A stretch of DNA of 64,000 nt from Eledone cirrhosa. Its lineage: Eukaryota. Where the stretch lies: assembly GCA_964016885.1 (NCBI GenBank), contig OZ024743.1, forward strand, positions 124,434,001 through 124,498,000, in the 5' to 3' direction. Under the pieces are notes generated by a model. The model had not been told where the DNA came from and did not search any database. It saw only the letters and a list, made by a program, of their open reading frames with translations. Shown piece after piece: positions 46,726 through 63,871 of the stretch (positions are counted from its first letter, which is position 1; every line of letters starts with the position of its first letter). The translations under genes were made by a program, and so were the position numbers.

Positions 46726-47214
46726 TTTCTCTTTCTCTTAATTTTGAGTATATTTTTTTGACCGGCCACCTTCCTGGTGGCAAGGTTGTAAAAGAAAAGA
46801 AATTGTCATCCCTTGAATCGCAAGAATGTTTTGCAAATTTTGAAGGTGCCAGCTATCGCAGCCATTTGTAGACTATGAATTAGGGAGCTGCGCTTTTTGT
46901 CCGCAAACCCAAGTTCAGTCATACTTTGGTCCAAGCGGGTTGGTATATAACCCGTAGCTCCAATAATGATGGGTATGAAGCTAAAGGTGTATCTTGGATA
47001 CTGGATTTGTAAACTCCTCATCAATGGTCCGTAGATGTCCTCCTTCTCCTGTATTTTTCTGACAACGTTTACATCAAGTGGGCAGCTGATCTCCACAACA
47101 GAACACGTTTTCAATGTGTGGTCCCAAACTACAATATCAGGCCGGTTGTGCTTTAATCTGGTGGCAGTTTTTATTTTCAGGTTCCACCAGTATTCCTTAG
47201 TGCCATCTGTCTCA

Positions 47215-47216
<2 letters not shown>
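46726..47216 (-). pseudogene. 3' end of R4/Dong-type non-LTR element (restriction-like endonuclease)
   Basis: HNRPDIVVWD...VVEISCP...K.EK..Y..L motif; (TATG)n on both sides; short 3' copy at 62570-62690. Confidence 0.88.
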
Positions 47217-47245
<29 letters not shown>

Positions 47246-47701
47246 TGTATGTATGTATACATACATATATGTATACAGACGTACAGTAGTATGTATATAT
47301 ATACATACATGCACACATATATATATATATGCACGTATCGATTTACCGAACATTTATTATAATGCTCGGTTTGTTCGTTTGTAAACAAACAGCCCGAATT
47401 ACGCCGTACAGTGTTTAGGCAACCACGTCACCTTTTTTTTCAATACTGACATGTGTGCATGTATGTATATATATATACATACTACTGTACGTCTGTATAC
47501 ATATATGTATGTACGTATACATACATACTTACATTTAAGTAAGTGCCGTACTAAAAGTGAGAAATGAAATTTCGTTTCATTCTATTCCATTTATAATTTT
47601 CGGTGCGCCGGCTGACTGAACTCACTCGATATGCAAATTAGGCTGCTCAGCCGTTAATATGCATAAGGAAAGTATATACTTTCAGACGTTCAACCATCTG
47701 G

Positions 47702-48941: not shown

Positions 48942-49004
48942 TGATATATATATGATAATAATGATGGCTGCGCGTTGCAAATGGTGGTGCATATGAAAAA
49001 GTAA

Positions 49005-49106
49005 GTCCTTCATCAGTGACCCTCCAACCGTCCCAGGCATTTCATCGCTTTAAGGGCCATATGCCTCAGGTTGGTGCGAACAACGGCTAAAAAAAGTCGT
49101 TGGGAC
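49005..49106 (-). ncRNA. Permuted, pseudoknotted hammerhead-like RNA, copy 3
   Basis: GTCCC-hairpin-TCGCA-CCAACC-TGA-GGCA-TA-TGGCCCT-taaaGCGAt-GAAA-TGCC-TGG-GA-C-GGTTGG-AGGGTCA-CTGATGA-aGGAC. Confidence 0.7.
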
Positions 49107-49131
49107 ACGTAAACAAAGGGGACGCCAGGGT

Positions 49132-49178
<47 letters not shown>

Positions 49179-53813: not shown

Positions 53814-54641
53814 TGAAGCTTTAACGGATAAAACGAGGACAGATATTTCCTCAAAATTGCAGCAGCAAGAACCCTTGTCATGTTAGACTGAATATACGAG
53901 CTCGTATAATATACTATCGGGTCCTAAATAATAGGAGGTGGGTGGAATAAGCGGGAGGGTTGGAAAACGGTAATTTTTTTAGGTTGTCTCCGTTGATTTA
54001 AAAAAAACCCAGAGTTAGTGTTTTAGTATACATATTGAGACCCCAACCTATCCTATTTATTTTATAACGTATTGGATTTCTAGTAATGTACTTTTTATGT
54101 CATATATAATGTTTTTTTAATGTCTAAAGAAAATTTTCGCGGAGGTGGGGGATCTGAAAAAATTAATAAACTGTGGGGATGATTATTCGAGACCCGAGAA
54201 GAAATACCAATGACGGACGCCGTCTTCTCGCTCTAATTTTATTCATATGTATCCCATTTGCAACAACGCAGCACGCCATTTTTCATTTATATTTTTCCCT
54301 CCGCTGTCTGTTTCTTTCTTACTGCTATCCTCTTTCTCTCCCCCTGTATCTCTCACCTTCATTTCATCCCCTCTGCCAGTCACTCTCTCTCTCAGCTGGC
54401 CTCTTCCTCACACTTTCACCCACTCACTCTCTGCTACTCCCCCTCTCTCACTTCCTCCCGTCTACCTGTGTAAAATACTTTTCTCGCTCACATTTCACAC
54501 GGGCTGGACGTGTCTGTGTCTCTCCTCGTCCATGATTTGATCGAACAGATATCACGGACTTGTTTCCCTTCTTCCTCTCTTTCCGTTGCATTACCATCTC
54601 TATTTGTTTAAATGTATCGCTCGCTTCACCCTATTCTACGT

Positions 54642-54743
54642 GTCCCAATAACTTTTTTAAGTTATTGCTCGCACCAGCCAGAGGTATATGATCTTTAATG
54701 CGAAGAAATACCATTGACGGCTGGAAGATCACTGATGACGGCC
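54642..54743 (+). ncRNA. Permuted, pseudoknotted hammerhead-like RNA, copy 2
   Basis: GTCCC-hairpin-TCGCA-CCAGCC-AGA-GGTA-TA-TGATCTT-taaTGCGAa-GAAA-TACC-ATT-GA-C-GGCTGG-AAGATCA-CTGATGA-cGGCC. Confidence 0.7.
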
Positions 54744-54811
54744 GCCCTGTCTTCTCGCTCTAATTTTATTCATATGTATCCCATTTGCAACAACGCAGCA
54801 CGCCATTTTCC

Positions 54812-62753: not shown

Positions 62754-63617
62754 TTCTTCTGGTTTTATAATTTCACAAAGTTTTACCAATAGAGAGAGAG
62801 TCGGTTTCTAACATAGACACAAGACTCTCTCATTGGAATTTACACAACGTCAACTAGGTAGATATGTATGTATGCATGCATGTGTAGATATGGATGTTAT
62901 TGTATGTGTGGATGTGTATGTTTTGAGTTGTATGTGTGCATGTGTATATGCTTTGTACATGTGTATATGCTTTGTATCTGTACATGTGTATATGCAGTTA
63001 TTAGATGCAACATTTTTGGAATGTTTTACATATTTTTACTGTTCCATTAATGGATTGTACTTGTAATTTCCTAACTAGTTGTGTTCTTTCTGTTCCTGTG
63101 AAGCCTAGCTTCTCAAGATTTGTATTGAGGCAGTTACTAACACATCCCAGTGCCCCAATAATCACAGGCATAAATCTGAAGGTGTAATCAGGGTGGAGTA
63201 TCTGCAGATTTCTCATCAGTTCTGCATAAATATTCTCCTTTTCACTAATCTTTGATATTATATTGGAATCTGCTGGGCAGCTAATTTCCACTGCTGTGCA
63301 TGTTTTCTTCTCCCTGTCCCATATCATAATATCTGGTCTGTTATGACTGCATTTTATAGGGGTTTTTACTGGAACATTCCACCAGTACTCTTTCATATTA
63401 TGTACATGGATGTCTTCCACATTGTTGTAGCTTTTAATGTGTTTATTATTGGGGCTATCTTTTTTACGAACTGCATTGTACAGTGTTTTGGCCACTACAT
63501 CATGCCTCATAGGTAGATAGTACCGCGATGACATCTTTGGACAGATGTTAGTTCTGCAGAGTCTGCACTTGTTATCACATCTAGGTGGTTTGCCTGCATC
63601 TCTATCTCTTTTGTGAA
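62754..63617 (-). pseudogene. 3' part of R4/Dong-type non-LTR element (partial CCHC + restriction-like endonuclease), ORF open 63001-63617
   Basis: KCRLC...CPKM...RHDVVAK...HNRPDIMIWD...AVEISCP; embedded in (TATG)n at both ends. Confidence 0.9.
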
Positions 63618-63871
63618 TGTATGTATGTATGTATGTATGTATGTATGTATGTATGTATGTATGTATGTATGTATGTATGTATGTAGAAGGCAACTCAGGA
63701 AACTGGGATAACTCCAATATAAAACCTGCGGCTCAGTAGTTACCGATGATGATCTTTTCTTCTTTTCGGGTTATAGCTACTGTCGCTCAGAGAGTGGGAT
63801 TGGCTCAGTGCACAGTCTTTCATCACTTTAAAAAATATCTTCACGTACAGGCATTGCATGAAAGAATTAAT

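Follow-up and report, generated by a model that had tools for sequence, protein, structure and literature searches.

A 102-nucleotide (nt) motif dispersed through the genome of Eledone cirrhosa is probably a self-cleaving hammerhead ribozyme of permuted block order, carried by a Naiad-type Penelope-like element (PLE) and predicted, in the copy studied here, to cut between positions 49060 and 49059 of the window (the whole stretch of 64,000 nt that was analysed, interrupted by a 200-N gap at 2143-2342). In all window copies and in a set of 32 aligned copies from many subfamilies, the three hammerhead blocks run S-G-C from 5' to 3', and the core sequences CUGANGA, GAAA and NUH adjoin stems I and III. 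Non-circularly permuted hammerheads have previously been without a known host genome or job, and Naiads are the one animal PLE clade said to be without hammerheads.

The set of aligned copies was drawn from 175 segments falling into 55 clusters, from which 32 real copies retaining the 5' part (the 32 rows) were picked by eye, truncated copies, fold-backs and chance matches being left out. From 5' to 3', the parts of the motif are strand a, a hairpin, strands b and c, UGA, the stem III 3' strand, A17, the stem I 5' strand, UAA and b', followed by N, GAA, the stem III 5' strand, a six-nucleotide loop, c', the stem I 3' strand, CUGAUGA, N and a' (Table 1). The 5' strand (a, hairpin, b and c) is predicted to act as a splint: a would pair behind CUGAUGA-N and b in front of N-GAAA, so that stem II would shrink to no more than a single base pair, which opens on a junction, and helix c would tie stems I and II together and be joined to stem III by a likely k-turn. 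The invariance of GAAA, CUGANGA and the k-turn GA counts for nothing in this set, because the search pattern fixed them in most rows; among positions that the search did not fix, U16.1 is present in 31 of the 32 rows, position 17 is A, C or U and never G in all 32, and N7 is variable.

Table 1. Positions in the window of the focal copy, its predicted parts (listed 5' to 3' on the minus strand) and the other two copies of the motif.
Feature	Position	Strand	Remarks
5'-truncated copy of the non-coding PLE, young subfamily A	48947..49135 (189 nt)	minus	(TA)n on both sides
Focal copy of the motif (subfamily A)	49106-49005	minus	102 nt
Strand a (GUCC)	49103..49106	minus	10.x half of split stem II; its partner a' directly follows CUGAUGA-N
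Upstream hairpin h, between a and b	49081..49102	minus	helix 2; missing in family E
Strand b (UCGCA)	49075..49079	minus	11.x half of split stem II; its partner b' directly precedes N-GAAA; pseudoknot
Strand c (CCAACC)	49069..49074	minus	helix c bridges the distal ends of b and stem I
UGA, non-bulged strand of predicted k-turn	49066..49068	minus	NGA in 23/32 rows; mostly lost in family D
Block S: stem III 3' strand GGCAU, ending in U16.1	49061..49065	minus	helix 5
Predicted scissile bond, A17 (49060) / U1.1 (49059)	49059..49060	minus	triplet AUA
Stem I 5' strand UGGCCCU	49053..49059	minus	helix 6; pseudoknot
UAA linker, stem I to b'	49050..49052	minus	fits the ~3-nt linker of type SGC (PMC10085705, partial text)
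Strand b' (AGCGA) and nucleotide 11.1 (U, 49044)	49044..49049	minus	
Block G: G12 A13 A14, then stem III 5' strand AUGCC	49036..49043	minus	
Bulged strand of predicted k-turn (UGG-GA-C)	49030..49035	minus	NNUGAN in most other subfamilies
Strand c' (GGUUGG)	49024..49029	minus	
Block C: stem I 3' strand AGGGUCA, then CUGAUGA (49016-49010)	49010..49023	minus	
Nucleotide 10.1 (A, 49009) and strand a' (GGAC)	49005..49009	minus	
Second copy (subfamily B)	54199..54811	plus	partial tandem; starts at GAAA of an upstream partial motif; (TA)n end; complete motif 54642-54743
Third copy (subfamily C)	9345..9800 (approximate ends)	plus	between (TA)n tracts; motif 9639-9740

A canonical stem II is missing: positions 10.1 and 11.1 pair in 23 of the 32 rows, the next two positions in only 9 and 10, and of five registers tried none was retained, the strands after A9 and before G12 pairing instead with the 5' strand. 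A canonical type I fold was rejected as well, the block order being S-G-C. Searching the whole window against Rfam returned no matches at the gathering score; an Rfam search at E≤10 returned 16, with no hammerhead among them. The folding energy of the focal 102-mer is no better than that of shuffled sequences (z=-0.27), and a nested-ensemble calculation, by a program that is unable to draw pseudoknots, assigns stems I and b a probability of zero.

A k-turn consists of a 3-nt bulge followed by tandem G-A and A-G pairs between two helices. This pattern fits the loop between stem III and helix c in most rows outside family D, one of its GA steps being fixed by the search, and is lost in family D; stem III likely carries a k-turn-like loop. 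In subfamily A only, the k-turn-like bulge strand (49030-49035) is complementary to strand a and adjoining nucleotides (49101-49106; 6 bp, -8.7 kcal/mol as a duplex), a helix that may represent an alternative, competing fold. The window also contains a second hammerhead-like family, with CUGAUGA starting at 4151 (plus), 55389 (minus), 56896 (minus) and 57045 (plus). It is composed of a hairpin stem I, CUGAUGA, a long stem II and GAAA in apparently canonical order; two of its copies are inverted about 56.9-57.0 kb, and it too has no Rfam match at the gathering score.

The element that carries the motif is abundant and, in the subfamily of the focal copy, young. Subfamily A has 1092 candidate copies in the genome; among 40 scored matches, 16 (the window's own included) are 100% identical over 151 nt and the remaining 24 are 99% identical. 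The subfamilies of the other two window copies, B and C, comprise 2099 and 1074 candidates, respectively. A 34-place core pattern (GAAA, TGA and CTGATGA at fixed spacing) occurs genome-wide at 7577 + 7749 = 15,326 places, compared with 7 + 6 = 13 for the reversed control, a count that is a lower bound because the pattern excludes subfamily A; a variant pattern occurs at 727 + 726 places, compared with 28 + 30 for its reversed control.

The full tandem unit of subfamily A is 788 nt long (locus L027), pyrimidine-rich and free of any recognisable protein-coding frame, and its units occur as direct partial tandems plus inverted copies. Motifs of other subfamilies are spaced 445-679 nt apart. More than one motif was found at 33 of 148 loci, with motifs on both strands at 19, and (TA)4 lies within 150 nt downstream of 140 of 170 matches. 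This anatomy (partial tandem and inverted copies, 5' truncation and a microsatellite target) is that of a non-autonomous PLE, as such elements are described in PMC8557442 (partial text). Within the window, a SINE-like abundant repeat directly adjoins two of the insertions (48945-48760, minus; 9930-10100, plus), and a perfect fold-back at 1205-1309 has CUGAUGA on both arms. A 3.3 kb tandem on contig C2 (343.59 Mb), considered as a full-length element, was rejected as a genomic duplication that includes an unrelated non-LTR fragment. Non-LTR fragments with a zinc knuckle and a restriction-like endonuclease motif were also seen at 46809-47342 and 63004-63732 of the window (both minus) and at locus L071, the last with a match to zf-RVT.

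Sequence comparison indicates that the family is likely derived from a Naiad-type PLE. Naiads target (TA)n and are described as lacking canonical hammerheads, some tails being flagged ‘HHR_core’ or ‘HHR_half_core’, GAAA in the half cores lying on one side or the other at a distance of 35-50 nt (Craig et al. 2021, PMC8557442, partial text). The last 330-420 nt of 49 of the 54 published Naiad consensus sequences (same source) were examined by eye. Eight of the 49 tails show the S-G-C layout with split stem II (Obim, Ovul, Amil, Aacu, Anas, Bfor, Naiad-3_Chem and Naiad-2_Movir, strand a being cut off in the displayed tail of the last), and four nematode tails (Naiad-1, -2 and -3_Nbra, and Hcon; supplement S5) show the order C-S-G with a normal stem II, a type otherwise known from two metagenome sequences; neither layout was seen by eye in the displayed part of the remaining 37. 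Naiads probably carry permuted hammerheads across animal phyla, of the split-stem-II S-G-C type in ctenophores, cnidarians and cephalopods and of the C-S-G type in nematodes, and the scrambled block order likely explains why they were thought to be without hammerheads.

In the E. cirrhosa genome itself, Naiad open reading frames (ORFs) survive as remnants that resemble Octopus Naiads: one search returned 10 matches and another 44, with no intact ORF among these and a longest open frame of 223 aa. Twelve of 29 stretches downstream of such remnants matched a shared 3' tail. Seven decayed tails that could be aligned (L244, L294, L295, L297, L298, L302 and L305) have S, G and C in order and a local hairpin before GAAA, in a periphery unlike that of the window motif. 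Positions 3 and 8 are U-A in four of the seven, and C-G, C-A and A-A in one each; U3-A8 is a core covariation reported for PLE hammerheads (PMC4209133, partial text). The genome has no exact match to a 19-mer from the Octopus Naiad motif, and a looser pattern for that motif gave a single decayed match with no ORF upstream. The window element lacks an ORF, and no intact example was found of an ORF with N-terminal GIY-YIG, DKA and reverse transcriptase (RT) that also has the window-type periphery.

A candidate source of helper enzyme is a young RT-EN PLE, abundant genome-wide (35,672 candidates, with open frames up to 951 aa), which is joined head-to-head to copies of the motif at L099, L106 and probably L168 (loci listed: L099/L152, L106, L130 and L168). 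Its own hammerhead is of the minimal type I and has CUGAUGA-A-GGAC in common with the scrambled motif. It was rejected as the motif's parent: the motif is present at only 2 of 20 of its loci, and it has that type I hammerhead of its own. Fragments of an AT-rich PLE ORF also lie in the window (25348-27078, plus; 14053-14745, minus), in which RT, a Cys-rich linker and a GIY-YIG-like C-terminal region can be recognised by eye; they gave no meaningful Pfam match.

If the motif cuts, the RNA template would owe its 5' end to cleavage of tandem transcripts; reverse transcription, by a PLE enzyme provided in trans, would then likely start a short way 3' of the motif, and would stop at or just before the template 5' end made by the cut. 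The 5' ends of genomic copies bear on this scheme. They were scored for 170 pattern-selected matches, from loci that were early matches on contig C1, with 28 hand-picked for diversity; after 13 matches without a family reference had been dropped and fold-back arms collapsed, 155 events remained. Measured upstream of GAAA, 25 of these ends fall within 17 nt, none at 18-29, 15 at 30-59 and 115 further away, counts that include at least one diverged full copy called as short (L132) and two short fold-backs called as longer (L116 and L193). The step departs from a uniform spread (p=1.6e-5; about 45 ends would be expected at 18-60 at the same rate) and coincides with the predicted bond, 16 nt upstream of GAAA. 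Four ends lie at that bond within one base: the fold-back junctions L084, L194 and L226, plus L217. The crowding of ends just 3' of the predicted cut suggests cleavage in vivo. The UAA linker has microhomology with (TA)n, which can account for some of the 5' ends. Locus L003 begins at the predicted bond, spans one unit and ends behind the next motif, a layout to be expected if reverse transcription starts inside the RNA, as it does in a Poseidon PLE (PMC11167929).

The same Poseidon work provides grounds for caution, as hammerhead cleavage was dispensable for insertion in vitro and was protein-assisted, with no RNA ends at the cut site (PMC11167929). Together with the missing canonical stem II and the retention of an uncut motif at every intact 3' end, these observations would fit a folded 3' tail, derived from a hammerhead, that persists because the reverse transcriptase recognises it and that no longer cuts, or cuts only when bound by protein. 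We consider this reading unlikely, as it leaves aside several features: 5' ends of copies that stop at the predicted bond, a position 17 that varies without ever being G, a free N7, and the replacement of C3-G8 by U3-A8 in Naiad remnants. These features fit the rules of catalysis better than those of protein binding.

The frequent tandem arrays (more than one motif at the 33 of 148 loci given above), and the proposal that minimal PLE hammerheads act as dimers (PMC4209133, partial text), raise a different arrangement, in which cutting takes place in a dimer or across tandem units, blocks of different copies forming an ordinary hammerhead and the scrambled order not being the active fold. This appears very improbable, given that the stem II strands are complementary in no pairing of copies, that all six helices close within ~100 nt of a single copy, and that GAAA follows CUGANGA by 45 nt or less in only 23 of 293 matches.

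Covariation across subfamilies supports selection at the level of RNA structure on all six helices of this predicted fold. In the 32 rows, the 34 proposed pairs are paired in 86.3% of 996 cells, compared with 68.1% after shuffling, a control that ignores relatedness among rows, and 30-46% after sliding; 26 of the 34 pairs show two-sided change. Helix 1 (a/a') is 88% paired, with two-sided change in 3 of 4 pairs, helix 3 (b/b') 82%, helix 4 (c/c') 90% and helix 5 (stem III) 91%, with U-A in 31 of 32 rows, and helix 6 (stem I) shows two-sided change in all 7 pairs; the values for the a and h helices are lowered because family E and D rows are partly misaligned there. In a structure-blind ranking of 2707 column pairs, the top 6 are all proposed pairs, as are 12 of the top 25. 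On a tree built from the same columns, 26 double changes each fall within a single branch, whereas 2000 re-pairings gave 1.26 on average and never more than 5. The S block that closes stems I and III upstream was found in 112 of 165 pattern matches here and in none of 52 in viral contigs. At the level of single copies in subfamily B, 3 of 264 core positions and 69 of 2141 positions outside the core have decayed, a difference that is not significant (p=0.08). That the paired changes stem from shared descent of a few subfamilies or from DNA-level templating is hardly credible even though the rows are related, the shuffle control is blind to this and the tree reuses the tested columns, since the tree-based same-branch count is 26 against 1.3, pseudoknotted pairs 40 nt apart covary, sister subfamilies have G-U intermediates, and the same layout recurs, by eye, with different letters in other phyla.

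The three window copies illustrate the same process on a small scale. They align without gaps over 102 nt, with 30 of 102 columns variable and no change at any of 11 core positions (Fisher p=0.03), in agreement with an earlier note on the focal copy, made from these letters alone, which had reported the core and total length unchanged. That note had called the focal copy the most diverged, and inside the window it is: it has 16 private changes against 6 and 6, and identities of 0.73 and 0.71 to the other two, which share 0.80 with each other. Genome-wide, it belongs to a very young subfamily, and because its subfamily is young it is no old outlier. Three consecutive stem I pairs were said to have changed to C-G. 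The strands read UGGCCCU/AGGGUCA in the focal copy, UGAUCUU/AAGAUCA in the copy at 54.6 kb and UGAUUUU/CAAAUCA in that at 9.6 kb; three pairs do differ from the 9.6 kb copy, but only two from the 54.6 kb copy and from sister subfamilies, since C-G is the most frequent state of the middle pair (25 of 32 rows). The covariation described for stem III is borne out by one change of U-A to C-G among the window copies, with sister subfamilies carrying a G-U step toward the focal C-G, and that described for the upstream hairpin by two double changes, next to which stands one A-C mismatch.

The observation is therefore real in part. The focal copy is not the decisive compensatory case it was taken for, as other subfamilies are more distant and yield more covariation; the proposed interpretation, selection on RNA structure across subfamilies, is supported by the two-sided changes through which six helices, both pseudoknotted ones included, keep pairing in the 32 copies. 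The selection supported is that on the master elements that found subfamilies, and not on this genomic copy itself. Paired changes would have been fixed in successive masters, so that the focal copy would show the sequence of a recently active master rather than its own decay.

Should the motif cut, permuted hammerheads would be among the most numerous ribozymes in some animal genomes, and would be of a kind overlooked by Rfam and by the usual descriptors. The step that 5' ends show at the predicted bond is also rare genomic evidence on the action of PLE hammerheads in vivo. The literature searched, which left most subscription papers outside it, describes permuted hammerheads neither from PLEs nor from animal genomes, and no matching variant appears in the available portions of PMC10162972 and PMC13725137.

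Among known systems, the window element shares with Naiads (TA)n targeting, partial tandem and inverted insertions, and a motif in the 3' tail, and the a-h-b-c-S-G-C layout is seen, by eye, in Naiad tails from Octopus, Acropora, Clytia, Morbakka and Beroe (PMC8557442, partial text); it differs in being young and coding for no protein, whereas the Naiad ORFs in the same genome are old remnants. With the minimal type I hammerheads of PLE pseudo-LTRs (Cervera and de la Pena 2014, PMC4209133, partial text) it shares the PLE setting, an extra nucleotide after A9, the U3-A8 core variant and many dispersed copies. In those circular permutations (C-G-S), helix II is long and canonical and helix III is short or missing; in the window motif helix III is complete and helix II split. 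Animal non-LTR retrozymes (bioRxiv 10.64898/2026.07.22.740005, partial text) are likewise non-coding tandem units of a few hundred bases, PLE-derived and with one hammerhead each, but are defined by type I hammerheads, from which the S-G-C order sets the window motif apart; that July 2026 survey used only type I descriptors, by which the window motif would be overlooked.

The closest likeness is to the type-SGC hammerheads (HRIMA-1 and variants), a non-circular permutation described in 2023 from metatranscriptomes (Eckert et al., PMC10085705, partial text); the available part of that paper states that, in the genomes of known organisms, a single type-GCS candidate was found and no others. Shared with type SGC are the S-G-C order, two pseudoknots, all core nucleotides, a linker of ~3 nt between stem I and the stem II strand, and a further helix that connects the distal ends of these two stems (PMC10085705, partial text). 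Type SGC has a canonical stem II and an unbroken block C, whereas in the window motif block C is interrupted behind A9-N, two helices formed with a 5' strand take the place of stem II, and the loop at stem III is k-turn-like; type SGC is known from metatranscriptomes, and the window motif is chromosomal, with more than 15,000 copies. Because it is SGC-like but lacks a canonical stem II, we class the motif as a variant of the type-SGC hammerhead, in which the split stem II and the k-turn-like loop are new. If it cuts, block C of a hammerhead can be broken, which would add a topology to the six proposed in 2023 (PMC10085705, partial text).
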